DNA of 64,000 nucleotides, from sequence record MH494197.1. One strand, 5' to 3'. A model generated the notes under the pieces. It had not been told where the DNA came from and searched no databases. It worked only from the letters and a program-made list of their open reading frames with translations. Source of the stretch: Escherichia phage CMSTMSU. Position 1 is the first letter of the stretch; each line of letters opens with the position of its first letter. Positions 1-21,470 of the stretch are shown here, piece after piece. Position numbers and translations under genes: made by a program.

Positions 1-267
1 ACTTTCAGTATCCATAACAGTGACCGAACCGCGTTTAGTACTTGCATCGTAATAAATTGTCGTGCTACCTTTTTCGTCTTCTTCATGGAACGGCCCGTTT
101 TTAAATGCTTCTGGCTGGATCTCTAAATCCTTTAAAACAATCTCGCCAGTACTTTCATTGGTCATCGCTACAGTGCACTGAATGAATTTTTCACTACTTA
201 CATCTAACGACGCATTAACAGCGAAAGAGGAAACAGATAAAGCCGTGGCGATGATTGCAATTTTCAT
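1..267 (-). CDS. secreted hypothetical protein, 3' end outside window
   Basis: Minus-strand ATG (A at 267) preceded by AAGGATAATCAA; N-terminus MKIAIIATALSVSSFAVNA resembles a cleavable signal peptide; frame open to window edge, so absent from ORF track. Confidence 0.5.
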   Translation of the reverse strand, partial: MKIAIIATALSVSSFAVNASLDVSSEKFIQCTVAMTNESTGEIVLKDLEIQPEAFKNGPFHEEDEKGSTTIYYDASTKRGSVTVMDTES

Positions 268-310
268 TTGATTATCCTTAGTTACGGGAACCGCTCTTGC
301 GATGTAAAAT

Positions 311-338
311 ATTATACAGTACTAAAAACTATTATCAA
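311..338 (-). promoter_or_regulatory. sigma70-type early promoter (read on minus strand: TTGATA-16-TATAAT)
   Basis: Member of the repeated element GATGTAAAA(C/T)ATTATAC...TTGCAAGTACTTT seen 7-8 times in 0.3-5 kb; lies just upstream of CDS 1..267. Confidence 0.5.
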
Positions 339-677
339 GTACTTTATGATTTTTATAAAACATTTCAGCAGTGATATTTTACCCGTTGGCTGTACTTTAT
401 CCAGAATTTTTGATGTCCGGCCGTCCAAATGAATATGATCCGTAAACCGTAAACCAGTAGTTACCCTCAGTGTTTACATGTACAGCATAATAGGGAACGC
501 CCGCGATTCATCACTAGTAAAGTGTGCTACCGTTCCGTTACATTCGCAGACGTTGATTTGATTTGTTCAAGCATTTTATTATTCCTTAGTTACCGTGGGA
601 ACTGCTCCTATGCAAAACATTATACGCGTTTAAAACTAATTGCAAGTATTTTAATAAAAGTATTTGAAAAATAGTTG

Positions 678-706
678 TTGACAAGTGCATCCAGTACTGG
701 CATAAT
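678..706 (+). promoter_or_regulatory. sigma70-type promoter, plus strand (TTGACA-17-CATAAT)
   Basis: Hexamers at 678-683 and 701-706 with CAGTACTG in the spacer; no ORF of 60 aa or more downstream before hairpin at 784-817. Confidence 0.45.
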
Positions 707-783
707 TACTACATCAAGACGAAACAGTCACTAACCCACCGGGTGCATAGATCCGTCTATTAAATGATTCAGTACTGAAAAGT

Positions 784-817
784 AACGGGAGTTATTATCT
801 CCCCGTTGTTATTTTGT
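784..817. terminator. hairpin terminator, probably bidirectional
   Basis: ACGGGAG-TTATTAT-CTCCCCGT stem-loop flanked by T/A runs; follows minus-strand ORF 909..1013 and a short plus-strand transcript. Confidence 0.45.
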
Positions 818-908
818 GGTATAAACAGAAGTCGCCTTTATTTGCTACGCCGCCAGTGTAACGCGAGGAATAGTCACCCGACTTCTGCTATTACCAGTGT
901 ATCATCAT

Positions 909-1013
909 TCAATTCGCGCAAACGGCTGGATCTTGTACGCCGATTTTGTCGGCATGTTCCCGCATAGATTTAACCAGTGCTTCCAGTTGGGAAAGAGTAG
1001 TGATATTAGCCAT
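909..1013 (-). CDS. small hypothetical protein (34 aa)
   Basis: Minus-strand ATG directly downstream of promoter 1063..1090; translates MANITTLSQLEALVKSMREHADKIGVQDPAVCAN; below ORF-track length cutoff. Confidence 0.3.
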   Translation of the reverse strand: MANITTLSQLEALVKSMREHADKIGVQDPAVCAN

Positions 1014-1062
1014 TGTATTTTCTCATTACCGTGGAGAACCATTTCTCCCTTTGATGTAAAAC

Positions 1063-1090
1063 ATTATACAGTACTGAAAACTAATTGCAA
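1063..1090 (-). promoter_or_regulatory. sigma70-type early promoter (minus: TTGCAA-16-TATAAT)
   Basis: Plus-strand ATTATA at 1063-1068 and TTGCAA at 1085-1090; followed on the transcript by conserved leader hairpin GGAGAA..TTCTCC. Confidence 0.55.
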
Positions 1091-1097
1091 GTACTTT

Positions 1098-1355
1098 TTA
1101 ATATTGTTTGTCGTCGTCTTCCTCGATGAATTGACCGACGAAATGATCTACTTTCGCTTTGAGGCTTTTATAATCTTCTTCTACTTCCTTTAAACGTTCC
1201 GTAGTATTCCAGTGCCTCAACATATGCGGCCTCAGCCGTTTTCTCACGCATAGCTAAATTCATTCCACGCGTTTCATCAAATAGCCAAAACCATCGGTGC
1301 ATTCACTGATAGACAATGATTTGTTTAACACATTGTACTTTATTACTTTACTCAT
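1098..1355 (-). CDS. hypothetical protein, frame breaks
   Basis: Minus-strand ATG at 1355 after promoter 1405..1432; translates MSKVIKYNVLNKSL...; continues in shifted frames to stop near 1098. Confidence 0.3.
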
Positions 1356-1404
1356 TAGATAACCTCAGTAAAGGCGGGAACTATTACCCGCCTCGATGTA
1401 AAGT

Positions 1405-1432
1405 ATTATACGCTTTTAAACTTAGTTTGCAA
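1405..1432 (-). promoter_or_regulatory. sigma70-type early promoter (minus: TTGCAA-16-TATAAT)
   Basis: Same conserved element; followed by leader hairpin GGCGGGTAATAGTTCCCGCC. Confidence 0.55.
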
Positions 1433-1443
1433 GTACTTTTAAA

Positions 1444-2034
1444 TTAATATTCGATTGATTCTACTACGCCATCAATAACATTGAATTGATACTCGTTTCA
1501 ATCAGTGCCGTAATGTTTTCCAGTAGTGAATTGATCCTCATATGCATTCTCTAAATCACGGTACAACTTGCGGGACAATTCACGAATAGTGTCAGTGAGT
1601 AGTTCCTCAAGCTCATTAACTAACGTTTTTGTTTTGCGGTTAAATCCAGTGTAAGCCGATTCAATGTACCCGCTTACAGTATTCTTGAGTAGTGGGAGTG
1701 CGAACGCTTTACACTCATCGCCAAACCATCTTCATTCAGCAAGTGACGGATTGAGCGATTAGTTAATGCTTTACCTTGCGTAAAACTTCACTGCGTCAAC
1801 GTGGTCAGTACTGATTGATGCACCGTCCCCGGGACCAAAAGCCACTGAATCGTAAATCAGCGTCATTAATGCCATATTCCGGTAGTACTGTTTCAGTATT
1901 CATTTCACTTTCAGAAAAATAATCATCGTTTAAGTTTTTTCACGTTCCCGAACCAGTTCGATAGCTGACGTTTGTTGTTCTGCGTTCAATTCAGAAAAAT
2001 CCATAACGAAAGTAGTAGTAGTGATAGTTTTCAT
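1444..2034 (-). CDS. hypothetical protein (~195 aa), several frame breaks
   Basis: Minus-strand ATG at 2034 behind GAGGG; N-terminus MKTITTTTFVMDFSELNAEQQ; open frames continue in alternating frames to about 1444. Confidence 0.3.
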
Positions 2035-2171
2035 TTTGTAACCCTCATTCAGTAGTTGATGTAAGTATTATACGCTTTAAAAACGTCAAACTATTTTATC
2101 AGGGAGTTTTGTGCCTATTCCTCGGCTACTTAACGGAAGTTACTTATTTGTTCCCCGTCCTGATGTAAAAC

Positions 2172-2199
2172 ATTATACGCCTTTAAACATAGTTTGCAA
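2172..2199 (-). promoter_or_regulatory. sigma70-type early promoter (minus: TTGCAA-16-TATAAT)
   Basis: Conserved element copy. Confidence 0.5.
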
Positions 2200-2241
2200 G
2201 TACTTTTAAAAATAGTTTTCAGTACTGAATATTAAAAAGTA

Positions 2242-2269
2242 TTGACAGCATTATCAGTACTAATATAAT
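2242..2269 (+). promoter_or_regulatory. sigma70-type promoter, plus strand (TTGACA-16-TATAAT)
   Basis: Consensus hexamers; CAGTACT in spacer; a 40-codon Cys-rich ORF (MTTANPRCNCNCN...) follows. Confidence 0.45.
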
Positions 2270-2695
2270 TCCCATGACAACAGCTAACCCACGGTGCAAT
2301 TGTAACTGTAATAAACTTTTTCTAGATACACTTCCGCACCCTATGGGCTACGGCTTATCTGCCAATGAATACATTATGCCAGTACTGACAAAATAAGTCA
2401 ATACCGGCAATTGTAAAGATTTGTAAACTGCTTATACTGCAATCGCGTCCGTGCTATAATAATAATAAGTGCTATGGTGTGACTTACCTTTTATTTCAGT
2501 ACTGAATGAATCCGAACGATTTGCATATGATGTTAATTTAAAGTACTTTGATTTGTTGATACGTTACACCACAGATCCGCGTAAGTAGTTTTATTAGTGG
2601 TAGTATCTTTACGGTTTTAACTTCAGTCATATACATATTAGTCATTTTTATTACTCCGAGTTATAGGGGAACTATTCCCGCTCTCGATGTAAAAC

Positions 2696-2723
2696 ATTAT
2701 ACGCTTTTAAACTTAGTTTGCAA
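2696..2723 (-). promoter_or_regulatory. sigma70-type early promoter (minus: TTGCAA-16-TATAAT)
   Basis: Conserved element copy; followed by leader hairpin GGGAATAGTTCCCC and a 35-codon ORF (MTNMYMTEVKTVK...). Confidence 0.55.
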
Positions 2724-2750
2724 GTACTTTTATTCAAGTACTGCAATCTT

Positions 2751-2991
2751 TTAGTACGGTACACGGTCACGCGGTTGCTTTCGGTCGAGCTTTATTTCTA
2801 CCACTCGACGCGATACACTATCAGGACTTTTCAACGCCGCTAACCAGTACTGTAATGATCTGGCTGTACTACGCTTTACAATGGCCCAACGTTTACCACG
2901 TTCCGATTGTACGCCCATATCTTTAAACGTTGCCCGTCCGGCGTGCTGCGATCCGAGCTTGTTCACGCGTCGCAAAATACTTAATATTCAT
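2751..2991 (-). CDS. hypothetical basic protein in a locally GC-richer segment
   Basis: Track ORF 2751..2975 plus upstream ATG at 2991 (MNIKYFATREQARIAARRTGN...) joined by one frame break; Arg/Lys-rich. Confidence 0.4.
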
Positions 2992-3347
2992 GTTGTTCTT
3001 ATCGTTGGTGTATGAATAAACACTATTATAAAGTACTATCATCGTGCAATAGTACTTTAAATCTATTCTATTACATTCCAACCATTGCAGCACGGATCGA
3101 TAGTGCTATATTTGAATCCGTCCGGTGTTTTTCTTGTCCAGTCTGTTCTAAAAAATAACATCATATGACGGGCCGCATCATTGCGATTAGTGCTATCGTT
3201 AATAAAGTCCCAACTGGTATAATGATTCATCGTTATTAATCCAAAGGCTTACATTCCAATGAGTTTTGTTTTTGTGACCTAAGAACATTTTGATTTAGCC
3301 ATTTTTAATCTTATATAGTGGGGAACTATTTCACCCTGATGTAAAAC

Positions 3348-3375
3348 ATTATACGCTTTTAAACTTAGTTTGCAA
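3348..3375 (-). promoter_or_regulatory. sigma70-type early promoter (minus: TTGCAA-16-TATAAT)
   Basis: Conserved element copy; followed by GGGTGAAATAGTTCCCC leader. Confidence 0.55.
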
Positions 3376-3576
3376 CTTTATTAAACTTATTTGTAATTTT
3401 GCACTGTCAGCCCATACTGTGAAACGATGCATATTATCCCATGCATCTTGTTTTAAATTTAAACTGTGCAATTCCTCAGTAGTTGCTATCCCCATTGGCT
3501 TACTACACACCGCGAAATTTTTCTCCATGTACTGATAAACCATCGTTAAATCATTTGAGATCATTACATGGATCAT
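3349..3576 (-). CDS. hypothetical protein (75 aa)
   Basis: Track ORF on the early strand; a 47-codon ORF (3599..3742) upstream may be the same gene split by a frame break. Confidence 0.35.
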   Translation of the reverse strand: MIHVMISNDLTMVYQYMEKNFAVCSKPMGIATTEELHSLNLKQDAWDNMHRFTVWADSAKLQISLIKLQTKFKSV

Positions 3577-3774
3577 TGAATCAGCTATGAAGTAGCGTAT
3601 TGTTCACGCACGGCAACGGTTCCCGATAAGCTGTAAATGTGAATTTTACAGTTTCAGCCGGAAGACCTTTCATTTCACGGAAGTTAACCGTGTTAAGCAT
3701 GATTTTATTGATTTGAGTCGCCATCGTTTTAATCTCTTAATGTAGCGGGAAGTGTTCCTGCCTCGATGTAAAAC

Positions 3775-3799
3775 ATTATACGCTTTTATCAGTATGCAA
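3775..3799 (-). promoter_or_regulatory. sigma70-type early promoter variant (13-bp spacer)
   Basis: Conserved GATGTAAAACATTATACGCTTTT element with ATGCAA in place of TTGCAA. Confidence 0.35.
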
Positions 3800-4063
3800 G
3801 TACTTTCTACAAATACTTTTAAAATAGTTTTCTCTATATAGGGAACTATTATTCAGTACTGCAACCATCCGTGGGAACTATCTTTCTATAGTAGTACTAT
3901 TATTCAGTACTGAATCAATCCACCAAATCATCCTGATACCCGTAAAACGGCCTCAGACGCATTCTAACGCATTAATACACCTAAGCTATACATTTGCACC
4001 ATTCCAATCTTGGCTGGGCCGTTTAAACGCGTTAAATTATTTTCAATTATTTTGTTTTAGCTA

Positions 4064-4090
4064 TTGACTCAGTACTAAAAAGCGTATAAT
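4064..4090 (+). promoter_or_regulatory. sigma70-type promoter, plus strand (TTGACT-15-TATAAT)
   Basis: Consensus hexamers; downstream transcript has 9-bp inverted repeat AGGGTGCGG...CCGCACCCT and no long ORF. Confidence 0.45.
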
Positions 4091-4096
4091 TACACA

Positions 4097-4270
4097 TAGA
4101 CGCGAGAAAGGAAACCAGAGGGTGCGGAATTACGCCCAAAATTCAAGATATAAAAAAAGGATACACCGCACCCTAGCAGGTTAACGCACTTTCTAGTACT
4201 GAAATATAGTAACATAGTCCGCTGATAGCAAGCAATTAAAACTTTTTCATCCGGTATTGCTTTATTTTTC
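4097..4270 (+). ncRNA. candidate small RNA
   Basis: No ORF between promoter 4064..4090 and stem AGCAAT..ATTGCT followed by TTATTTTT; contains TACGCCCAAAATTC motif. Confidence 0.2.
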
Positions 4271-4284
4271 CAGTACTGTATAAT
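4257..4284 (+). promoter_or_regulatory. promoter, plus strand (TTGCTT-16-TATAAT)
   Basis: ATTGCTTTA upstream also matches my recollection of the T4 MotA-box core; TATAAT at 4279-4284. Confidence 0.4.
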
Positions 4285-4379
4285 AGTTCCATCGTCGAGA
4301 AAGACTCAGCCCACCGTATAGTTACGCCCAAAATTCAGTACTGAAAATTTTAAAAATATCCGTCCGTGCGCGTTGTTCC

Positions 4380-4640
4380 CCCAGTTTATAAGATAATGAT
4401 TCCAGACTCCAGAACGGTTCATCCCACGCGGTAGGGGAACTATTGGAAAACAAAATAAAATTTTGATTTAGCCGTCTATACTTCCAGACGTGTAACCATC
4501 TAGCCGTTTAGCTGTCCAAACGTCAGCCATCCAGCCATCCAGAAATCTAGCCGTTTAGCCGTCCAGATGGATAGCCATTTCCAGACTTCTGAGGGCTAGA
4601 CATATCTACGTCCAAAATCCATCCGTGGTAACTACGCCCA
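4380..4640. repeat. cluster of short direct repeats (TCCAGA; TAGCCGTTTAGCYGTCCA)
   Basis: TCCAGA five times and TAGCCGTTTAGC(C/T)GTCCA twice in ~200 bp; locally GC-richer; no ORF. Confidence 0.5.
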
Positions 4641-4949
4641 AAATCCGTCAGTACTATACCATAGATCATCTTTGGAGTATTCAGTACTGCCATCAGCCCC
4701 TCACATGTTACCCTAGGAGGATGAAGATCACCGCGGTACTGAATACTGTTAGAGGGAATCCACCAGCTTGGTGGTATAATCGTTTAGATTAAAATCAGTA
4801 CTGACACCATTCTGTTAATATCAGTACTGTTATTGATTTTCATATGAGGTTCAAAAAGATGTACCCACCACAGGAGGAACTATCTTTTCTGTACTGTCTC
4901 ACAGGAGGTAGAGTAAATGAATCGTTCGCAACTCATCTCTATGTAGAAC

Positions 4950-4977
4950 ATTATACAGTACTGAATCATAATGTCAA
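4950..4977 (-). promoter_or_regulatory. sigma70-type early promoter (minus: TTGACA-16-TATAAT)
   Basis: Matches the conserved early promoter element; transcript runs leftward into the ORF-free repeat region. Confidence 0.5.
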
Positions 4978-5189
4978 TAGCTTTCTTTCATTATTCAGTA
5001 CTGATATTCTTGAGAACTACCCGACTACAAACATCATTATATCCCACAAATCATAAACGTCCCAACGTAAATTTCAACTTTCGAAGATCCAACTTTATTT
5101 CATAGGTACTCCAAAATTTTAGGATCGAGATTTAGGATGGAGTACTAACCAACTTTTGCTGAGCTCTGGATATTAAGGTGAAAGTAATA

Positions 5190-5500
5190 ATTCAGTAATT
5201 AATCATTGGTGATTACTTTTGATTACATTTGATGTAATTTGCAAAATGGAAAAGGAGCTTGAAACTAGTACGGCAGACTTCCTCTGCCTACTAGGTGCTG
5301 GTTTCATCTATCGGAGGGAAATGGATTAACCTTAGCAATACGTAACTGAATACGTTCTTGATTAAACGTGCACATTCCTGTACTCTATTACACTCTAGTA
5401 CACTCTAGTACTCAATACTGATCACTACAATGATTATAAATGATTACTTAAATGTTTATATATGATTACTTATGACTACATATGATTAGGGTTTACTGGG
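5190..5500. repeat. TGATTAC short-repeat cluster with adjacent direct repeat
   Basis: TGATTAC recurs about seven times in two sub-clusters; TACACTCTAGTAC is duplicated in tandem at 5390-5415. Confidence 0.4.
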
Positions 5501-5816
5501 AGAATCTAGTGATCGCATTTGTCCAGCTGAATTTTAACATATATAACATATGTTAAAGCCTGTCCAATGCTTCTGCGGAGCTTCTGTCTATATGTTGAAT
5601 TACTTCCTATATATAAGCATTAACATATAGTAGTACTGATTATGCTGTACATTCTCTTTAATATTATAAGGGTCTATAGCAATCTCGGTACATCTGTTAA
5701 ATGCATATCTATTAAATGCCAGTACTATTATAGATCTAATCCATGCTTGGTCAGTCGGTGGTAGTTTACTTATATAGTACTCTTTATAGTTTTTATGTTC
5801 TGCATAGTATACCTTA

Positions 5817-5996
5817 TTATTTCAAAGTACCATATAGTACTCTTAATAGGAAGTAGTACGTATTAGAGATATCATTACTAGTTAAAACAATCTTTGTACA
5901 CATATTAAATTCGTATTGAGTCATTGCTGGGATTAAATTGTTAACCCATGCTTGTTCGTTTTCTTTGAGTTTACTTATATAGAAGTCTTTATACAT
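5817..5996 (-). CDS. small-ORF array member
   Basis: Translates MYKDFYISKLKENEQAWVNNLIP...; below ORF-track cutoff; degenerate copies lie further left. Confidence 0.35.
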   Translation of the reverse strand: MYKDFYISKLKENEQAWVNNLIPAMTQYEFNMCTKIVLTSNDISNTYYFLLRVLYGTLK

Positions 5997-6228
5997 AGTA
6001 TTATCTCTATTAATATGATAGTACTAGTGTTAGTACTGAGCACAATTGTTCTTTATAGTTCTTAGGGTATATAGAATCTTTTATGCACTCATTGAAGTGC
6101 CATAGGTATAATCTTGGGTCGCATTCTTTATATATTTTACGCCATAGGTATATATCTTGGGTCGCATTCTTTATATATTTTTTACGGGGACGAATGTTAG
6201 TTTTCTTATATAGAAGTCTTTGTGTTCT

Positions 6229-6438
6229 TTATTCATATAGGAATAGTATACCTATGATGCCTGAGTACATGTTAGTACTGTTATTATTGGCGTTTGCGTT
6301 TAAAGTCATTTGAATACAATTGTTGTAGCATAATCTGCCGAAATATGTATCAGTACTTAAAGGTGCAGTAGTCCTTAGAAACATTTGTTCTGTGGGGCTG
6401 AGGTGTTTGGAGTAGAATTCTTTATGTTCATTATTCAT
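6229..6438 (-). CDS. small-ORF array member (69 aa)
   Basis: Track ORF MNNEHKEFYSKHLSPTEQMFLR...; close paralogue of 7020..7226; start overlaps upstream stop. Confidence 0.5.
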   Translation of the reverse strand: MNNEHKEFYSKHLSPTEQMFLRTTAPLSTDTYFGRLCYNNCIQMTLNANANNNSTNMYSGIIGILFLYE

Positions 6439-6634
6439 AGATATATAGGAGTGCCATTATGTTGGAGTATAGTTTATTGTTGTCATTTTCTTGCAGTGCT
6501 TGTATAGTACTACGTATACAGTTATTATAGCATATTTTTGTGAAATTATTTTGTAATTTCATTTTCATTGGTTTTGCTTTATAGAATGATTGTTTTGTGG
6601 GACTAAGATGATTTATGTAGAACTCTTTATACAT
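6431..6634 (-). CDS. small-ORF array member (67 aa)
   Basis: Track ORF MYKEFYINHLSPTKQ...; shares CYNNCIR and C-terminal hydrophobic YE motif with neighbours. Confidence 0.5.
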   Translation of the reverse strand: MYKEFYINHLSPTKQSFYKAKPMKMKLQNNFTKICYNNCIRSTIQALQENDNNKLYSNIMALLYIYE

Positions 6635-6651
6635 GTTAGTACCTTAGTGCT

Positions 6652-6837
6652 TTAGTGTCTGTATATAAGTAATAGTAAGAATACGTACTGCACCTGTTCA
6701 TCTTTAGTATTGAGTACTGTACGTATTGCGTCATTAAACAAAAATATAGTACTTGGGTCATTAGAATTTAAGGGGTTTACGGGGACGGCGTGTTTGTAGT
6801 TCCCTTTAACAAATTGTATATAGTATTCTCTATGCAT
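6652..6837 (-). CDS. small-ORF array member (61 aa)
   Basis: Track ORF MHREYYIQFVKGNYK... Confidence 0.45.
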   Translation of the reverse strand: MHREYYIQFVKGNYKHAVPVNPLNSNDPSTIFLFNDAIRTVLNTKDEQVQYVFLLLLIYRH

Positions 6838-6838
6838 A

Positions 6839-7027
6839 TCAGTACCTATATATTAGGGCGAGAATGTAGTACAGTTCATATGGAATGTAATTTGGGGTGA
6901 TAGCACACTGTGTATGGTAAATGAATTGTTGGGTATTTTTCTTATCCTTGATATCTATTGGGTTTAGTGGTATAAGCATTTGGGAGTTTAGTTCCAGATG
7001 GTTTAAGTAGAATTCTTTGTTATTCAT
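6839..7027 (-). CDS. small-ORF array member (62 aa)
   Basis: Track ORF MNNKEFYLNHLELNSQ... Confidence 0.45.
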   Translation of the reverse strand: MNNKEFYLNHLELNSQMLIPLNPIDIKDKKNTQQFIYHTQCAITPNYIPYELYYILALIYRY

Positions 7028-7226
7028 AGAAGAATATTAGTCCCATTACGCCTGAGTACTGAATATTTTTGTTATTGTTTTCTAAAGCTTCTAGAGTAAT
7101 ACGTATACAATTATTAAAGCAATCTCTGGCGTGTGGTGTATCTAAACGTAAAGGTGATACACTCCTTAGAAACATTTGTTCTGATGCACTGAGGTGTTTG
7201 GTGTAGAATTCTTTCTGTTCGTTCAT
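7020..7226 (-). CDS. small-ORF array member (68 aa)
   Basis: Track ORF MNEQKEFYTKHLSASEQMFLR...; AAGAGG 6 nt upstream of ATG; paralogue of 6229..6438. Confidence 0.55.
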   Translation of the reverse strand: MNEQKEFYTKHLSASEQMFLRSVSPLRLDTPHARDCFNNCIRITLEALENNNKNIQYSGVMGLIFFYE

Positions 7227-7236
7227 ATTGGCCTCT

Positions 7237-7425
7237 TTAGTACACGAAAGCTAGGTACAGTGTATGATACAGTACTCGATGATAGCTATCAAAATCTAGT
7301 ATACATGCTTTAGTGCACATAGTAAAGTACACTTTATCGTTTTGAGCATTGATACCGCGAGGTTTATCTAATAGATTAGTACTGAGGTACATTGGGAAAT
7401 ATTTTGTGTAGTATTCTTTATGCAT
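7237..7425 (-). CDS. small-ORF array member
   Basis: Track ORF 7237..7470 trimmed to internal Met giving family-type start MHKEYYTKYF. Confidence 0.45.
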   Translation of the reverse strand: MHKEYYTKYFPMYLSTNLLDKPRGINAQNDKVYFTMCTKACILDFDSYHRVLYHTLYLAFVY

Positions 7426-7807
7426 ATTAGTACCTGAATATAAGTAGGATAGTGTTATATAATTGGTCATAGCTACTACTATTTTCTATACTGCGTTCTA
7501 TGCAATTATTGAATCCCAGTACTGCCAAATCGTTATCCGGGGGACTTTATATCTGGCGTAGTGTTCAAATATACTGGGAGAAATTGTGTGTAGTATTCTT
7601 TGTGCATATTAGTACCTATATATTAGTAAAAGGATGTGATACAGTACTCGATTATAGTCTTCAATATATATCGAGGATTTAGTGCACTGAATGAAGTAGT
7701 CTTTTTCGTAGTTTTTTCTATACCCAATGGTTCTGTTGGTAGAAGGTGTTGGAGATACATTGGGAGTTTCTCTATGTAGTATTCTTTGTGGTTATTCATA
7801 TTATGTG

Positions 7808-7981
7808 TTATTTCGTGAAAACAAGGGTTAGTACTGCATAGTACAAGTCATACGTATCTTTAGGGTTAATAGCACCTTTAATACATTCTTTCATTACTTC
7901 ATTATAGATAATTTTAGTACTGAATGTATTGGATGTTACTATATCGGAATTAAGGTACGAGAGGTAGAATTCTTTATACAT
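7808..7981 (-). CDS. small-ORF array member
   Basis: Track ORF 7808..8044 trimmed to internal Met giving MYKEFYLSYL; longer form also possible. Confidence 0.4.
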   Translation of the reverse strand: MYKEFYLSYLNSDIVTSNTFSTKIIYNEVMKECIKGAINPKDTYDLYYAVLTLVFTK

Positions 7982-8080
7982 AGTTTGAAATATACGTAAT
8001 GAGGTGATGAAATTTCTTATCAGTACTGATAAGTTCCTGTACATGTTTTGTTAGTTTGTACGCGTTTTATAGAGTCCGGA

Positions 8081-8458
8081 TTATCGATTACAGTACTGTA
8101 CATGAATAGATCTTCTTCTGATAATTCTTTGCCGGTAATTCTTTGAGGAATTGCAGTACTGTATCAGTTTCGTTAGTACGTTGCTTTTGGAAGAAGTGCA
8201 TGTTATCGTGTATTTTTCTGAACCCATGCAGTACATATCTCCGATTTGGAATTGTGCAGTACTGATATCATGGGTGCTATTACAATTCCCGAAGAAGTAT
8301 ACATTCCCGAAAGATAGAATTATAGTGCACGGGATATTATCCATGTGTATATAGATAGATGCATTCTTTAGTGCTTTTGTGCTGGTATTAGTACTCAATA
8401 CTTTTAAATCAGTATTATAGATATTAATAAAAGCAAGAGCTATATTATTTTTCTTCAA
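8081..8458 (-). CDS. hypothetical protein inside the array (125 aa)
   Basis: Track ORF only; lacks the family motif and is low-complexity. Confidence 0.2.
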   Translation of the reverse strand: MKKNNIALAFINIYNTDLKVLSTNTSTKALKNASIYIHMDNIPCTIILSFGNVYFFGNCNSTHDISTAQFQIGDMYCMGSEKYTITCTSSKSNVLTKLIQYCNSSKNYRQRIIRRRSIHVQYCNR

Positions 8459-9207
8459 GTACGATTTGAGGTTCTTAGATACGAGAACATTTCTGGATTT
8501 TTCTTTTTATTTCGTTTCTTTAGTATATTCGGGTGATACGTATAAGATGATGTAACTGATTCTGCTTGAATACTGTTGAGGTATTTAAAGTGCTTAAGGT
8601 ATTGTTTGCTGTGTGCATTAAGTTTCATTTGGTTTCCTTTATACAGATGCGAGTGCGAGGATTTCCCTGAAGGGATTATCTTTTGTTAGTGCGTGATGAA
8701 TGCAGCTATTGAGATTAATATTTTTAGTACTGTTAGTTGCCGTTGTAGTACTTCACGAAGGTGTCGTACATGAAACGGTCTTTAATGCTTATGTGTTCTA
8801 TATAGTATTCTTGCATATTATTCCTTACATAGAGATGAGTTTCAGTACATCAATATACATATAACGTTCAGATGACTGTACACGGGTAGTGATAATCTCA
8901 ATCGATATATTTTAATTCCATGTGCAGATGATTGATGGTGCTGAATAAATGAGTTGTGCATACTTTGTTCTATGTGGTTTAGTTTATTGAAGTAGTACTC
9001 AAAAGTGTTCATGTCTACCTTAGATTGAGATTAGTTTAAGTACTTCTCTGTATGTGTACTTTTCGTTTTGTGCTTCTACTGTACATGATAGTAGGTATCG
9101 TTTTTTATCTCTTTTGTTCCCGACTGTGTAGTACCTTTGGAATTTATTATAGTTGTATCTATCTTTGTGCTGGAGTTTATAGATATAGAATTCTTGCATA
9201 GAGTACC

Positions 9208-9393
9208 TTAGATTGCTATCAGTTTCAGTACTTCAATATATGTGCGGTACTCTGCTTTAATTAAATTTGTACACACTGTAAGGGAATTTCTTTGTATAAG
9301 TTTATTGCCGCTTTTATACGCATTTCTCCACACATAGAGATGAGATCTTTCAGGCATAGATAGTTTATTTGTATAGTACTCAAATGTATTCAT
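9208..9393 (-). CDS. small-ORF array member (61 aa)
   Basis: Track ORF MNTFEYYTNKLSMPERSHL...; similar broken copy at about 8990. Confidence 0.45.
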   Translation of the reverse strand: MNTFEYYTNKLSMPERSHLYVWRNAYKSGNKLIQRNSLTVCTNLIKAEYRTYIEVLKLIAI

Positions 9394-9995
9394 ATATTAC
9401 CTCAAATAGAGATTAGTTTAAGTACTTCTCTGTATGTGTACTTTTCGTTTTGTGCATCTCTTGTGCTTGTATATAGGTATCCTCGACGATATTTGTTGCT
9501 CCCGTTCTTGTAGTTGAATTCGAACTTATTGTAGATGAATCTATCGCCGCTGTAATTTACTTAAGTACAATTCAATGCTCATAGTATTCTCTTTACATAT
9601 CAATAAGTTTCAGTACTGCTCTGTACGTGTACTTAGTTGTTAGTGCTTCTTTATAGCAATACAGAAGTAATGTTGTTTGTCTCTTATACTACCGCGTTTG
9701 TAGTACCATACATTGGAGTTGTGGGTGTACTTGTCCCTGTCGGATAGATTTTGGTAATAGTATAATATATGATTCATGGTAATGTAATTAGCCTTATTAT
9801 GTTAAAGTACTCGGTCCCCGTACACCTTGTAGAATATTATCAACTACATTTTCTTGGTGCAGGATTAATACATTCGGTGCGGTTCTTTTAAGGTTTTTAA
9901 AGTACTGTATTCTTGTTTAAGGATGAACTGTACATCTTTAGGGAGAATATCTAAGTAGTACTGGTGTATGTTCATAGTTTTCATATAGTACTCTT

Positions 9996-10181
9996 TTAGA
10001 ACTTAAAGATGAGGTTCATGATAGATAAGTACTTAGTTTCAGGAAATTGATGTTCTATTGCATAACGTGTCTCCAGTCTGAAGTCAAATTTATAAAAGGG
10101 ACTATTCATATCCATAGGTTCATTGGGAAATGAATCTCTGTATTGTTTGTGCAGCTTACTACAGTAGAATTCTTTATACAT
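9996..10181 (-). CDS. small-ORF array member (61 aa)
   Basis: Track ORF MYKEFYCSKLHKQYR... Confidence 0.45.
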   Translation of the reverse strand: MYKEFYCSKLHKQYRDSFPNEPMDMNSPFYKFDFRLETRYAIEHQFPETKYLSIMNLIFKF

Positions 10182-10182
10182 A

Positions 10183-10395
10183 TTAGTGCTCGATTAAAAG
10201 GGTTAGGATGTAATAGTATTGCATACTTTCTACCCCTTGTACAGCATTTCTTATTTTATTATTCCTGTACGAGTTCAAGAGTTTAGGACAATGTTTGAAG
10301 TTTATATAATTATTTTGTGTATACAGTAGGCTTTCTCGTAGACCTTTTGTTGGTAGTGCATCGATGTAGTACTGTTCAATGTTCATAGTGTTCAT
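10183..10395 (-). CDS. small-ORF array member, first unit (70 aa)
   Basis: Track ORF MNTMNIEQYYIDALPTKG...; abuts 9996..10181. Confidence 0.4.
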   Translation of the reverse strand: MNTMNIEQYYIDALPTKGLRESLLYTQNNYINFKHCPKLLNSYRNNKIRNAVQGVESMQYYYILTLLIEH

Positions 10396-10719
10396 AGAGC
10401 TACCAGTACTAAGATTTTTGATAATTGTTTGTTTCTATCCCGCAGATGTTGTTGTGTAAAATGCTCACTACAAGGGTATCAAGTGCATTGTTCAGCATAA
10501 GGTTACATCCAGTACTGTTATATTTTTTAGCTCAATTAGCCACGAACAATCCGCGAGAAATTTCCCGTACTCTAGTTCATTTAGCGTATTAATGTAGTAC
10601 TTAAGTGCATTTGTCATGTACAGTTCTCCTTATATTCCTTCTATAGTACATCAGTACTGAAAGGTTGTCAAGGGTTTTCTTTTTGGGGTAAATATGATAT
10701 AATGAATAAAGGAGGAAAT

Positions 10720-11866
10720 ATGTTACCTTTTGTAAGAATGGTTAAGTACGGGAATATTGCACCAGTACCGAAAAAATAAAGAAAGTTATAGCAGGATATG
10801 ATAATTTATATGTACTATATGGTGATGGTTCGCTATATGGTTGTGGAATCAATAACTATCAACAGTTAAATATTGATGGAACTGCTACACAAAATAATTG
10901 GGTACTAATTACCAATGGTGTTAGTAATGCATGGGCTGGTGGATACAATATTTTATATTTGAAAGAAGATAAATTTATAATGCACGGAACTAATGTCTCA
11001 TTAGGTTTAGGAAATACTACAATTCCATTAGGTGGAGTAGATGTAACTTCTTCATTCCCAGATATCTCTAATATTAAAATGATATCCATTGGTTTTGATT
11101 CAATGCACTATGTTAGTGCTGATGGTACAACTGTATATGGAAGAGGTATGAACACAAATGGTTCTGTTGGTTCAGGTAGTACTTACTCACAGAGTACTTT
11201 CACTTCAGTACTGAATAATGGAACTAATCAGGTTATTGATATATTTGGTAACGTTAATAATACAGTGCTTCTAACATCGAATGGTGAGCTTCGAGCATGT
11301 GGGACAAGTGCTTATGGTTCTATAGGAAATGAAACTGGTAAGTGGACATCGTTTGGTTTAAAATTATCTGGCACTAAAATAATGGGTGGTAATGGGTATA
11401 GTACGCTTGCATATACAAATTCGGGAATGTACCACTCAGGGTGGCAGTTAAATGGGGAACTAGGAAATGGTTTAGATACTAACGTACAGGTATATCCATT
11501 TCAATTTAACTCTAAAACGATAGATAGCAAGATAGATAAAATTGCCAAATCATCATCTGGGTCATATGTTAACATGTACTCAACAACAGAAGGAAAGATA
11601 TATACGACAGGTTCGTTTGGTAAAACGGGTCAACTACTGCATTGAATTTGTTCACCAATACATTAACACTTATAAATTACAATCCAGATACCGCCTCGTT
11701 GTATACGTGCACAAACTTCAGTGTTGTGTATGATGGTAATGAAACTATTGCTGTAAGTGGTAGTCCTACATATGTACCGAGGGCGTTGCCGCTAATAGAT
11801 GGACTACAATTCCATTACCCAAGTAATACTATGCCAGTACTTGATGCTGGCTTTTCTTTTGATTAA
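10720..11866 (+). CDS. leader-tagged RCC1-like repeat protein F1 (frame breaks)
   Basis: AAGGAGG then ATG; N-terminus MLPFVRMVKYGN; stop after 19 codons at an A-run (10766-10772), one extra A restores a reading colinear with paralogue 24753..25907; body = track ORFs 10959..11645 and 11642..11866. Confidence 0.7.
11833..11860 (+). terminator. intrinsic terminator between F1 and F2
   Basis: Hairpin GCCAGTA-CTTGA-TGCTGGC followed by TTTTCTTTT; same element recurs after most array genes. Confidence 0.6.
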
Positions 11867-19028: not shown

Positions 19029-20198
19029 ATGTTACCTTTTGCAAGAATGGTTAAGTACGGGAATATTGCACCTGTTCGCCCTGAAATAAAGAAATTGGAT
19101 GGTAGTCAATTACATGTCGGATTACTATATAGTACTGGTAATATGTATATGCGTGGTTCTGGTTCGAACTACAAGTTAGGTACAGGTGATGCTAGTGATG
19201 TATTAGATGGTTGGGTACATGTACCCTATGAAGTTGATGATTTTTGGGCGTGTGTGTCCGGTACATTAATAAAGACTAAAGACAATAAGTTATATTGTGC
19301 AGGACTATACATGGGTGGATATTTTGGTGCTAGTGGTTCATATGTTAACTGGACTGAAGTAACTTCATTATTTGTGGGTATTAACGTCTCACAAATAAAG
19401 AATATAGAATTTACATCAGCGAGTACTTCCGGTAGTACACTAATATTGATGTTAGATGGTAGTTTATATGGGTTCGGTATGAACAGTAGGTCGGAGTTAG
19501 GTGTTAATAACAAAGTCGTATCTCCTATTCTTATAGATACTGGGGTAAGTTCAATAGGAGCACATAAATTAGGTGGTTCATCGTTCCATTATATAAAAGA
19601 CGGTAAGTACTACAGATGTGGGACCGCGATTGGTAGTAATATAGGAAGTTCTTCTTTAACTACATTTACTGAATTGAGTATTGCTGATAATGTTATATCT
19701 ATGCAAATATTATTTGACAACGTACAGTTATTATGTTTTGGTAGTACTGGATATAGTATCTATATGGCTGGTTCTAATGATTATGGTGGAAGAGGTGTTG
19801 GTGGTAGTACTGTTTACACTACATTCAGGAAAATAGATCTTACTGGATTTGGTGTTGTTCCCAGTGAAATACTATTTGAAAATGCAGGGAATGGTTATGT
19901 TAATATATCAACTGATAGTACTGGCATATATACATGTGGTGGTGGTGCTGGTGTTAATGGTTTAGGTAGACCGAGTAATGTTATATCAAGTTCACAGTTG
20001 GGTTTGATTGAGTTCAGTACAGGATTATACCCAGCAAATATAAGTCGTGTATTTTCACAGAGTTCATCTTCTGTTATATATTGTATAGTTAATAATGAAT
20101 TGTACTGGGCTGGGAGTAATTCATATTTTACTGATCAAACTACAAATACTGGTACACAATTTTCATTTATTAAGATGAAGGATATGCCTTCTGCTTAG
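19029..20198 (+). CDS. leader-tagged RCC1-like repeat protein F8 (intact, 389 aa)
   Basis: Uninterrupted track ORF; N-terminus MLPFARMVKYGN; Gly/Ser/Thr/Asn-rich repeats. Confidence 0.85.
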   Translation: MLPFARMVKYGNIAPVRPEIKKLDGSQLHVGLLYSTGNMYMRGSGSNYKLGTGDASDVLDGWVHVPYEVDDFWACVSGTLIKTKDNKLYCAGLYMGGYFGASGSYVNWTEVTSLFVGINVSQIKNIEFTSASTSGSTLILMLDGSLYGFGMNSRSELGVNNKVVSPILIDTGVSSIGAHKLGGSSFHYIKDGKYYRCGTAIGSNIGSSSLTTFTELSIADNVISMQILFDNVQLLCFGSTGYSIYMAGSNDYGGRGVGGSTVYTTFRKIDLTGFGVVPSEILFENAGNGYVNISTDSTGIYTCGGGAGVNGLGRPSNVISSSQLGLIEFSTGLYPANISRVFSQSSSSVIYCIVNNELYWAGSNSYFTDQTTNTGTQFSFIKMKDMPSA

Positions 20199-20205
20199 AT
20201 TTTAT

Positions 20206-20235
20206 GCCAGTACTCTGTACTGGCATTTCTTTATT
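20206..20235 (+). terminator. intrinsic terminator after F8
   Basis: GCCAGTAC-TCT-GTACTGGC hairpin plus ATTTCTTTATT. Confidence 0.6.
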
Positions 20236-20265
20236 AAATATAGTATAATGAATAAAGGAGGAAAT

Positions 20266-21470
20266 ATGTTACCTTTTGTAAGAATGTTTGATTATGGGAA
20301 TGAAGCACCTGTGCCAGTTGGTATAAAGATGGTAAAAGTTTTACAGAATAATGTGTTTATTTTATTAGAAGACGGAAGATTATATGGCAGAGGGCATAAT
20401 TTTTACTATCAATTAGGTACTGGTAGTAGTTCTCCTACTATAGTTGAAGAGTGGGTTTTATGTTTAACTGATGTAAAGGAATTTTGGACTACTGGTGATA
20501 CACAAGGAATATTAGTACGTAAAAATGATGGCACATGGTGGAGTACTGGTACTCAAATCTATCGTGGTGTTAATACTACTTATCGTGTATGGACAGAAAT
20601 ACTTGGTATTTTTAATGATGTGAATGACACATATAGTAAAATAGTTATAGGAAGCGGCGTTACATTATTATTAACAATAGATAATAAATTATATAAGATG
20701 GGTGACAATAACAACGGTGAAGTTTTACTGGGGCTGTTGGTCAAAGAGTATCAGTACTGACATTGACACCAGAAGTTAATGTTAAAGATATTGGTGTAAC
20801 CGCGAATAATGCTTCATTTGTATTATACAATGATGGAACATTAAAGTACAGTGGGAATAAATCTAGTATTGGTTCGACTGGTACGACTAGTACAACTCCC
20901 ACATTGACTACTGTTACTACTGGAGTATTACAGATAAATTCGGAAAATGCATATAGTGCTAATTACGTATTAAAGAGTGATGGGCTATATGTATTCGGTT
21001 CACAAATAGATGGACAGTTGGGTGATGGCACTGATGGCACTATTAACAGTCTTAGAACAATCACAAAGATACCAGCTTCTAGTATTCCTAGTACTGCTAT
21101 TGATTACATAGGTGGTTCTAATTTTGAAGCACACGTTAGAGCAGGTGGTATATGGTATTTCGCTGGGCGTGGAAACGCTTCTGGAGATGGAATAACGAAC
21201 TCTAATGTTATTAAAACATGGCGTGCATGTACTAATATAACTGAACCAGTTCCATATGATAAAATGACACATGGTTATATGATAACATTCATGTTAAAAA
21301 CGGTGAATTATATGGTTCAGGGAATGGTGGTAGAACTGCTGGTATGGGTACAATTCCGTATGAAGAAGAAAATGCCGGAAATACAGGATTATTTAAAAAA
21401 TAGTTACACCGAGTTAAAATTAAAAGCCAGTACTCTGTACTGGCATTTCTTTGTATTAAATATAGTATAA
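20266..21470 (+). CDS. leader-tagged RCC1-like repeat protein F9 (frame break)
   Basis: Track ORF 20248..20760 trimmed to MLPFVRMFDYGN Met, plus track ORF 20763..21470. Confidence 0.65.

Follow-up and report, generated by a model that had tools for sequence, protein, structure and literature searches.

Coliphage T5 carries an untranslated stretch of 1.2-1.7 kb, Repeat Region 3, that holds the boundary of its long direct terminal repeat (DTR) as well as the presumed injection stop signal, which is still undefined. The DTRs of jumbo coliphages have been published as well: that of G17 was inferred from sequence coverage, that of fEgEco12 (20,993 bp) was called with PhageTerm and confirmed by restriction digests, and that of Sharanji measures 20,668 bp by PhageTerm. 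The jumbo-phage papers give terminal repeats of about 20 kb but leave the 2 kb end region blank. Here we map that end region in Escherichia phage CMSTMSU (sequence record MH494197.1), of which a stretch of 64,000 nucleotides was analysed; we call this whole stretch the window and number it from its first letter. The element in question is a non-coding segment at 3725-5292, hereafter the hub, which contains the interval 3800-5100 that an earlier note on this DNA had singled out. We read it as a cis-acting, non-coding genome-end control region at one boundary of an approximately 21 kb DTR, and we put the probability of this reading at roughly 0.6; most likely the region joins a terminase cutting and packaging site with a launch pad of early promoters. 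In the searchable literature we found no description of the hub, of the 8-bp array that it contains or of its link to T5.

The genome end at the edge of the hub

The window belongs to an Asteriusvirus, a jumbo coliphage of the 121Q/PBECO4/G17 type. A megablast search with 3300-5700 returned 40 phage records at 84-89% identity, all of about 350-380 kb (121Q, PBECO4, G17, phAPEC6, fEgEco12 and others), and the hub aligns along 98% of its length with 34 related records, at an overall identity of 78-86%. The G17 record holds both copies of its 20,668-bp DTR (1-20668 and 350150-370817). Its last 400 nt and the first 400 nt of fEgEco12, reverse-complemented, both align to window 4943-5292 and both end in ...GGCAGACTTCCTCTGCCTACT; the two share an identical terminal 21-mer, which corresponds to window 5272-5292. 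Six records (CRJP21, ELP-22, BF17, vB_Ec-M-J, fEgEco12 and E9.1) have their position 1 in this region, and the alignment runs to window 5292. The shared terminal sequence and these record starts therefore define a homologous boundary between positions 5292 and 5293 (5292/5293). Homology to experimentally determined termini shows this junction to be the boundary of the approximately 21 kb DTR and, by the same homology, the physical end of the genome.

Throughout, conservation is the column identity in a nine-genome alignment of this phage and eight relatives. By this measure identity is 0.83-0.84 on the near inner side of the boundary and drops to 0.29-0.35 directly beyond. Given the boundary, the interval 3800-5100 sits 190-1490 bp inside the end. 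The earlier note had suggested a packaging or recombination site as one explanation of that interval; in substance this holds, the region being at a DTR boundary and physical end, although the end itself lies just outside the interval. The features of the end region are as follows.

3725-5292, no strand: the hub, the non-coding terminal part of the DTR, without conserved open reading frames (ORFs)
5075-5150, plus strand: terminus-proximal conserved block including GGTACTCCAAAATTTTAGGATCGAGATTTAGGATGGAGTACT (5105-5146), with 97-100% column identity in the nine phages
5210-5237, plus strand: repeats TGATTAC TTT TGATTAC ATT TGATGTAA, 55-80 nt inside the end and conserved in relatives
5265-5295, plus strand: terminal inverted repeat CTAGTAC-GGCAGA-cttcc-TCTGCC-TACT/AGG (the stroke marks the cut), folding energy (dG) -16.4, z -5.3
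5293-5816, no strand: non-coding continuation outside the DTR, hypervariable at 5293-5425, with three copies of ACTCTAGTAC (5382-5411) and TGATTA(C) repeats at 5419-5490, from the rows of Tandem Repeats Finder

What is found here of a terminase site is thus a physical end, by homology with the relatives' termini, and conserved repeats and structure beside the cut, which falls within the 3' arm of the inverted repeat. The block at 5075-5150 keeps 86-93% identity in Munch, XbC2 and GAP32, and lies 70-170 nt from the record starts in Munch and XbC2. TGATTA(C) copies also occur outside the cut, mirroring those inside, and these outside copies are only partly conserved in relatives. All DTR genes are transcribed away from the hub end. 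The hypervariable segment begins exactly at the DTR boundary (column identity 0.29-0.6); beyond it, conservation returns in a TGATTAC repeat block (5450-5475) that does not vary across the genus. G17's other DTR boundary (...GAAGTCGCTA/AGGTTACCCGCC...) is an ordinary intergenic gap of about 250 bp without any hub element, so the two repeat ends are marked very differently; the 5075-5150 block, too, is absent there.

That the interval lacks convincing genes, as the earlier note had proposed, is borne out. The non-coding gap spans 3725 to about 5816; its longest ORF has 70 aa, none reaches 75 aa, and 5293-5816 holds none of 60 aa or more. Seven ORFs in 4090-5764 were compared with the PHROG families, without a match, and in Pfam and PHROGs searches the hub ORFs found no match while the flanking genes matched only phage families without known function. 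Small minus-strand ORFs occupy 1-3724 and about 5.8-10.2 kb, and the window has no tRNA genes. In G17 the corresponding gap (19040-20934) is more than four times as long as any other intergenic gap of its DTR. The earlier note had named corrected sequence revealing ordinary protein-coding genes as the outcome that would overturn it, and two observations could be read in favour of genes masked by sequencing errors or frameshifts: a homologue of phrog_7352 adjoining the hub is split into two ORFs in the window, and this phage has many small deletions relative to its relatives. However, the gap is equally free of ORFs in eight relatives with independent genome records, the indels among those relatives across the region measure 1-9 nt in lengths that are not multiples of three, and their annotators have made no consistent coding-sequence calls there. 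Masked genes are very improbable, and on these comparative grounds we consider them effectively refuted.

The split gene lies on the minus strand at 3349-3576 and 3581-3724, as ORFs of 75 and 47 aa. The relatives have a single ORF of 120-139 aa (phrog_7352, function unknown), and the split may stem from a frameshift, from decay into a pseudogene or from an error in sequencing. Compared with the eight relatives, the hub of this phage also has many private small deletions, among them those of 9 nt near 4016, of about 25 nt near 4415 and of about 59 nt at 5158, the last removing a GGGGTAAT...TACCCC hairpin; single nucleotides are missing inside unit 8 of the array and in the spacer of the promoter P(+)1.

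Promoters, hairpins and short motifs

The region is rich in repeats, with 31 direct-repeat families and 66 inverted-repeat pairs, and its conserved blocks reach 90-100% identity. Between the first DTR gene and the terminus-proximal block, the following promoters and structures stand out in addition to the array treated in the next section.

4977 to 4950, minus strand: perfect sigma-70 consensus promoter TTGACA-16-TATAAT (12/12), facing inward, 315 nt from the genome end, 97% conserved
4064-4090, plus strand: promoter P(+)1, TTGACT-15-TATAAT, followed by leader ATAGACGCGAGAAAGG; outward-facing, 91-100% conserved in the genus
4257-4284, plus strand: promoter P(+)2, TTGCTT-16-TATAAT, with CAGTACTG in the spacer and followed by leader ATCGTCGAGAAAGAC; outward-facing
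3775-3815, minus strand: early promoter of the class AAAGTAC-TTGCA...AAAAGCG-TATAAT-GTTTTACATC, upstream of the first DTR gene (ATG at 3724); repeat family D10/D15
4120-4173, no strand: long hairpin GGGTGCGG...CCGCACCC, with copy 1 of TACGCCCAAAATTC in its loop; fold dG -19.8 (plus), -24.0 (minus)
4174 to 4158, minus strand: terminator-like site from a terminator scan
4131-4144, 4323-4336 and 4633-4646, plus strand: copies 1, 2 and 3 of TACGCCCAAAATTC, with a degenerate copy at 4607-4620
4676-4747, no strand: inverted repeat AGTATTCAGTACTGC / GCGGTACTGAATACT, 15-nt arms and a 42-nt spacer; fold dG -26.6, z -2.9
4760-4774, no strand: remnant of a Chi palindrome, CCACCAGC (minus-strand Chi) and then ttGGTGG, the plus-strand Chi having been lost via a 5-nt deletion
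4796-4829, no strand: hairpin CAGTACTGA...TCAGTACTG, terminator-like on the minus strand (14 pairs, then ATTTTAAT); dG -17.8, z -5.2; 98% conserved

The consensus promoters that the earlier note saw on both strands stand up to comparison: the perfect minus-strand one and the two plus-strand ones are all kept across the genus, with the caveat that the total number of promoter-like sites is not above that in shuffled sequence. By our estimate, a perfect promoter such as that at 4977 to 4950 would be expected about 0.008 times in the stretch by chance; downstream of it there is no gene for about 1.2 kb. P(+)1 and its leader are also present in Munch and XbC2, and in three other genera, represented by Munch, XbC2 and BF, sites resembling inward promoters are found 188-330 nt from the end. 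The early-promoter class (AAAGTAC-TTGCAA-N16-TATAAT-GTTTTACATC) has seven near-identical minus-strand copies in window 1-5292, roughly one for every small gene or two. Sigma-70 promoters are thus strongly predicted in the hub; those on the minus strand would fire inward to the small DTR genes, and the two on the plus strand outward into non-coding leaders. As a separate observation, all 11 window copies of TATAATGTT are on the minus strand (624, 1068, 2177, 2701, 3353, 3780, 4955, 13178, 16660, 39361 and 54112), and seven of them (624-4955) belong to the early-promoter class, 430-1180 bp apart through the DTR.

The stem of the GGGTGCGG hairpin is kept in BF, Yen9-04, GAP32, XbC2 and Munch, with different cassettes in the loop. 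The earlier note had reported three copies of TACGCCCAAAAT(T/C)C, each preceded by CCG(T)GG. Exactly three copies exist, and the preceding motif, as CCGTGG, is true of the third only. In its TACGCCCAAAATYC form the motif occurs three times (4131, 4323 and 4633) and nowhere else in the 64 kb. The hub has five oriented CCAAAAT motifs in total; five of the six CCAAAAT copies in 30 kb of G17 fall in its hub, all on the same strand.

An intact Chi palindrome, CCACCAGC-N4-GCTGGTGG, lies about 520 bp from the genome end in six of the eight Asteriusvirus relatives and in Munch (about 0.01 expected per strand). The copy lost in this phage is the correctly oriented one. The palindrome is found at 9526-9545 of our G17 locus (L001), where the G17 annotators labelled it a terminator, and at 2623-2642 of the Munch locus (L020). 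Phage A4 has lost both Chi copies, and the T5 terminal repeat has plus-strand Chi at 8048 and 8610.

The earlier note had also found CAGTACTG to be frequent, and 9 of its 52 window copies do lie in 3800-5100. The motif is not specific to the hub, however; the palindrome AGTACT occurs 231 times in the window as a whole where 21.7 copies are expected, a 10.6-fold excess, and is densest at 0-10 kb. In all Rak2-like phages examined, AGTACT is 15-21-fold over-represented in early or DTR regions (loci L002 and L003 of G17, L007 of Yen9-04, L008 of BF and L009 of GAP32), and it is not so in the T5-family loci. The bases on either side mirror each other, with C at -1 and G at +6, and promoters explain only a subset of the sites, namely AAAGTAC/TTGCAA at the -35 element and CAGTACTG/TATAAT in the spacer. 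AGTACT differs from the SlmA site; a SlmA-type site, GTGAGTACTCAC, is absent from the hub.

The lead, the 8-bp array and their relatives

A cluster of TCCAGA and TAGCCGTTTAGCYGTCCA had been noted earlier, and it is there: 6 of the 19 TCCAGA copies and both long motifs fall within 4401-4585. The TCCAGA/TAGCCGTTTAGC cluster is a degenerate 8-bp tandem array with a conserved lead.

4425-4451, plus strand: conserved lead CACGCGGTAGGGGAACTATTGGAAAAC, 27 nt, directly upstream of the array; 99% conserved in the genus
4467-4582, plus strand: degenerate tandem array of about 14 units (TCTAGCCG / TTTAGCCG / TCCAGACG / TCCAAACG) with an 8-bp period
3943-3973, plus strand: element TAAAACGGCCTCAGACGCATTCTAACGCATT, resembling T5 Repeat Region 3 (T5 9267-9297) and T5 IRB' (6189-6213), 87.5% over 32 nt

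Because the units are degenerate, Tandem Repeats Finder catches only 2.4 of them here, and we used autocorrelation instead, which gives z = 6.8, 6.0 and 5.8 at lags 8, 16 and 24, with all other lags negative or at most 2.4. The eight relatives have arrays of 97, 113 or 121 nt, which differ by 8, 16 or 24 bp and so by whole units in register; in this window, unit 8 of the array lacks 1 nt. Array and end are 793-817 bp apart in every one of the eight and 714 bp apart in this phage, whose deletions shorten the distance. A BLAST search with the array against 5,426 E. coli genomes and the PLSDB plasmids returned no match, and a host or plasmid origin is accordingly not supported.

Sensitive BLAST searches identified the lead and array as the hub segment most widely shared with other jumbo genera. 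They occur in GAP32 and XbC2 (both Mimasvirus), in BF and Yen9-04 (both Eneladusvirus) and in Erwinia jumbo phages, with most of the matches 38-850 bp from the record start, and the lead consensus CGCGGWAGGGGARCTAWTGGAAAA is common to BF, Yen9-04, GAP32, XbC2 and a jumbo contig from IMG/VR (L025). The layout is collinear in GAP32, XbC2, BF, Yen9-04 and Munch, spanning at least four jumbo-phage lineages: a promoter, the ATAGACGCGAGAAAG leader, the GGGTGCGG hairpin and a second strong promoter (TTGCAA-17-TAATAT) are followed by a leader, the lead, the array, GTACACCCAAAATTCAG, an AGTACT-rich stretch, the GATTTAGGATGGAGTACT block and the record start. In BF, GAP32 and L025, for example, GTACACCCAAAATTCAG comes after the array. 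The slot in the hairpin loop holds alternative cassettes, either CCAAAATTC or the T5-like AATGATAATCATTCGCATT, and in Munch the array slot is filled by GAGAATCATT-type repeats in place of the array. The published Munch record was reopened at the DTR boundary called by PhageTerm (DTR 21,296 bp), so the hub abuts a determined terminus in a second lineage.

Transcription through the leaders and array would offer another explanation, that the hub encodes early non-coding RNAs, which is how we understand the cluster of small RNAs suggested in the earlier note. On the plus strand a candidate RNA would run from a promoter through a structured leader and the lead into about 14 tandem 8-nt repeats; with its excess of C over G and a YC dinucleotide at 8-nt intervals, this RNA might load Rho or act as a sponge. 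On the minus strand the candidate is an antisense RNA from the perfect promoter, which has no ORF downstream. Strong promoters lie directly upstream of leader and array in BF, Yen9-04, GAP32 and XbC2, the array strand is richer in C than in G in each of the six phages examined, and the pairing of the leader hairpin is kept by compensatory changes (for example, CTAG/CTAG to CTGG/CCAG); this covariation comes from only five sequences, and a DNA cruciform would fit it equally. A minus-strand hairpin with a U-run at the array edge occurs in BF, GAP32, XbC2 and L025. On the other side, a search of 3000-6500 on both strands found no Rfam match (Rfam 15, E <= 1), the plus-strand RNAs have no convincing terminator in this phage, the equivalent promoter in Asteriusvirus lies about 150 nt further upstream than in the other genera, and the arrays of T5-family phages have no obvious promoter. 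In favour of the earlier suggestion are the conserved plus-strand promoters reading into hairpin leaders with some covariation, and against it the results for Rfam and for terminators in this phage; as an account of the region we think it unlikely.

The array-edge hairpin is formed on the minus strand of the first two array units, as GUUUAG-ACGG-CUAAAC followed by 5-6 U (L008 3040-3057 in BF, L009 about 4041 in GAP32, L021 about 2302 in XbC2, and L025). Transcription directed inward would end at this hairpin, on the far side of the array; the Asteriusvirus equivalent is weak.

Another of the earlier suggestions, a replication origin, would make the repeats initiator iterons and have the promoters prime or activate replication. 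An iteron-like array does lie between promoters, and the cumulative GC skew has its minimum at about 5-6 kb. Against this, DnaA boxes and an AT-rich unwinding element are both missing from the hub (GC content 0.40, compared with 0.32-0.36 in the flanks), the skew minimum is some 0.5-1 kb away, and the skew changes near 6 kb, outside the hub, at a block of small paralogous genes whose composition is atypical. The array is, moreover, common to T5-family phages, and a preprint puts the T5 origins near the genome centre. The skew minimum being nearby but confounded by gene composition, and the boxes, the AT-rich element and a skew change at the site itself all lacking, we rejected the origin, which we regard as quite improbable. 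The block in question (window 6000-10000) consists of tandem minus-strand genes of about 60 aa each, start/stop coupled and apparently paralogous. They have more C than G on the coding strand, the opposite of all other gene blocks in the window, and this C-rich coding strand accounts for the skew minimum at about 5-6 kb.

Outside the jumbo phages, the array matches Aeromonas phage AhSzq-1 (Demerecviridae), which has about 29 units in a 950-bp gap free of ORFs. With the AhSzq-1 array as query, 97 records were found, 33 of them from Vibrio; the Vibrio records sampled are Thalassavirus, and the Vibrio matches are mostly close to where a record begins or about 8 kb before it ends. AhSzq-1, Thalassavirus and a further locus (L031) share the array at E values of 1e-6 to 1e-12. 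In Thalassavirus the order is T5-type DRD repeats (GTCGGATTTGCAC), GGCGCAGGAGGG, the array and a block of DnaA boxes and palindromes, and the Thalassavirus sequence TGTCGGATTTGCACCCAGGCGCAGG aligns to T5 9662-9686, which is the annotated 7.9% nick (nick-1) together with DRD copy 1. Lying beside this homologue of nick-1 and DRD1, the array is within the T5-family equivalent of Repeat Region 3. We also considered the lead of the jumbo phages as a nick-1 homologue; the resemblance is weak (about 9 of 12 positions), and we do not claim it, the case being convincing for Thalassavirus only. In AhSzq-1 and AhSzw-1 the array is within an ORF-poor repeat region, and true homologues of A1 and A2 lie about 3 kb from it.

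In the hub itself, the match of 3943-3973 to T5 9267-9297 has a score reached by none of 100 dinucleotide shuffles, and the block around it (3950-3999) is 97-100% conserved in the genus. The corresponding T5 matches exceed 97 of 100 shuffles in Munch and 99 of 100 in AhSzq-1. Repeats like the T5 DRC fill the same slots in the hubs of Munch, BF and Yen9-04. The DRC/palindrome repeats of T5 (AATGAGAATCATTATCATTCG) and their jumbo counterparts may resemble the Fur-box consensus of E. coli, GATAATGATAATCATTATC; the loci concerned are L020 2040-2430 (Munch), L008 2780-2810 (BF), L007 2785-2805 (Yen9-04) and L017 970-1140 (T5).

A pattern scan of IMG/VR for the array found nine loci, including a 120-kb T5-like contig with an array of about 260 bp and a 355-kb jumbo contig. 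Two IMG/VR contigs (L027 and L028, 4.7 and 29.7 kb) have a short run, GACGGCTA GACGCATA AACGTCTA GCCGTCTA AACGTCTA, that is intergenic in a GC-rich contig. As this contig is neither jumbo nor T5-sized, the 8-bp unit may occur beyond the long-DTR phages.

The position of the array in the T5 family raises the question of delivery. Lead and array might be an injection stop signal in a T5-like or T7-like staged delivery, a possibility that we treat as tentative. One version would have the approximately 20 kb DTR enter from its far end and halt at the hub, like the first-step transfer of T5; in the other, the hub end would go first and, with about 0.8 kb inside, the perfect inward promoter would let host RNA polymerase draw in the rest, as in T7. 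Several observations are in keeping with this. In T5-family phages the array stands where T5 has its shear point and 7.9% nick; along the DTR, its place is at about 96% of the length in G17 and the corresponding value for T5 is about 95%; small genes crowd the DTR, and every one has a sigma-70 promoter; and the perfect inward promoter, gene-free for about 1.2 kb downstream, lies between end and array. The polarity of the array, if matched to the T5 family, where the left end enters first, would favour the version with the hub end first. However, the stop signal of T5 itself was never defined, so the analogy rests on position only; homologues of A1 and A2 are absent here, as are DnaA boxes, and our literature searches gave no staged-entry experiment in any Rak2-like phage.

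A stronger form of the same idea, speculative and in our judgement improbable, is that lead and array make up a portable polar stop cassette common to T5-family siphoviruses and Rak2-like jumbo myoviruses, and interchangeable with DRC-type repeats. If this were true, such a cassette would physically underlie the injection stop signal of the T5 type, and jumbo phages of about 350 kb would deliver their genomes in stages.

A probable control region at the genome end and its known counterparts

A genome-end control region remains our preferred account of the hub. It would be the first or last 1.6 kb or so of the linear virion genome. The conserved block at 5075-5150, the TGATTAC repeats on both sides of the cut and the terminal hairpin would guide the terminase cut that makes the end. 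The array is probably a protein-binding or translocation-pause cassette: with its lead it may form a polar element that pauses DNA translocation at ejection or packaging, or else acts on transcription crossing the array, and it may be the counterpart of the repeat cassettes in T5 Repeat Region 3, the candidate injection-stop region. The Chi palindrome near the end in most relatives would blunt RecBCD attack and favour recombination between DTR copies.

Several points weigh against this account. The terminus of this phage is placed through relatives that are 80-89% identical to it, and, since the other DTR boundary has no comparable hub, the hub cannot by itself explain how the DTR is cut. Promoter calls are consensus matches only, and promoter-like sites number 14 against a shuffle expectation of 16.3, which is not above chance. 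A protein that binds the array and a pause of DNA there are both hypothetical. The comparison with T5 has gaps of its own. Matches to T5 proper are short (32 nt, the only match to T5 itself), and those of BF are no better than shuffles. DnaA boxes (TTWTNCACA) are absent from both strands of 3300-5900; no DRD repeats (GTGCAAATCCGAC) occur in the hub sequence, and blastn of the hub against T5 1-11000 gave no DRD match; and tblastn searches of the window and of the G17 DTR with T5 dmp, A1 and A2 (the last two being required for transfer to restart) found nothing meaningful. Finally, Asteriusvirus and the T5 family have the array in opposite orientations with respect to the DTR boundary nearest to it.

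Our analysis fills in the end region across at least four jumbo lineages, placing in it the terminus, early promoters, Chi, a conserved block near the terminus and a repeat cassette, and finds the 8-bp array in T5-family phages where the first-step transfer of T5 stops. Two unrelated phage groups thereby offer natural swaps of cassettes, among the 8-bp array, DRC-type repeats and CCAAAAT-type loops. An exact end with its cis-acting elements is useful for phage engineering and for judging whether a genome is complete, and it bears on how repeats of 20 kb form and how very long genomes enter cells.

Three known systems can be set beside the hub. In the pac site of P1, short hexamer repeats cluster to either side of where the terminase cuts, much as clusters of the heptamer TGATTA(C) flank the cut at 5292/5293 here. 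P1, however, packages by the headful without a fixed second end, and binding of a small terminase subunit to the repeats described here is only a candidate function.

The ends of T7 have a terminal repeat of 160 bp with flanking arrays of short repeats, the host-polymerase promoters A1-A3 within about 750 bp of the leading end, and an outward promoter, phiOR, about 700 bp from the right end. Shared with the present locus are strong host-type inward promoters within a few hundred bp of the end, another promoter directed outward, short repeats around the cut, and early genes that run co-directionally from that end. The differences are the size of the repeat (160 bp against about 21 kb), the lack of sequence similarity, and the leading end, for which the hub end and the far end are both candidates here.

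The third system is Repeat Region 3 of T5. In both cases a long untranslated region straddles the boundary of a long DTR: in T5 the equivalent region is 9194-10409, with the boundary at 10139 and 1,662 bp of non-coding sequence at that DTR boundary, and here it is 3725 to about 5816, across 5292/5293. Dense and conserved direct repeats, inverted repeats and palindromes are found here too, and the 8-bp array of this window lies inside the equivalent region of Shenzhenvirus and Thalassavirus. The two differ in that the adjacent T5 genes (ORF011-017) run towards the region while the DTR genes here run away from it, in that T5 proper has no 8-bp array, and in that T5 is a siphovirus and the present phage a myovirus of about 350 kb. 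The hub also has no IRC or IRD arms and none of the paired DnaA boxes of T5 IRD'/IRC'. Because DnaA boxes, DRD repeats, A1 and A2 are missing and the array is reversed, we have not filed the region as a member of the T5 system. We describe it as a variant of the same kind of element as T5 Repeat Region 3, with which it appears to share cassettes.

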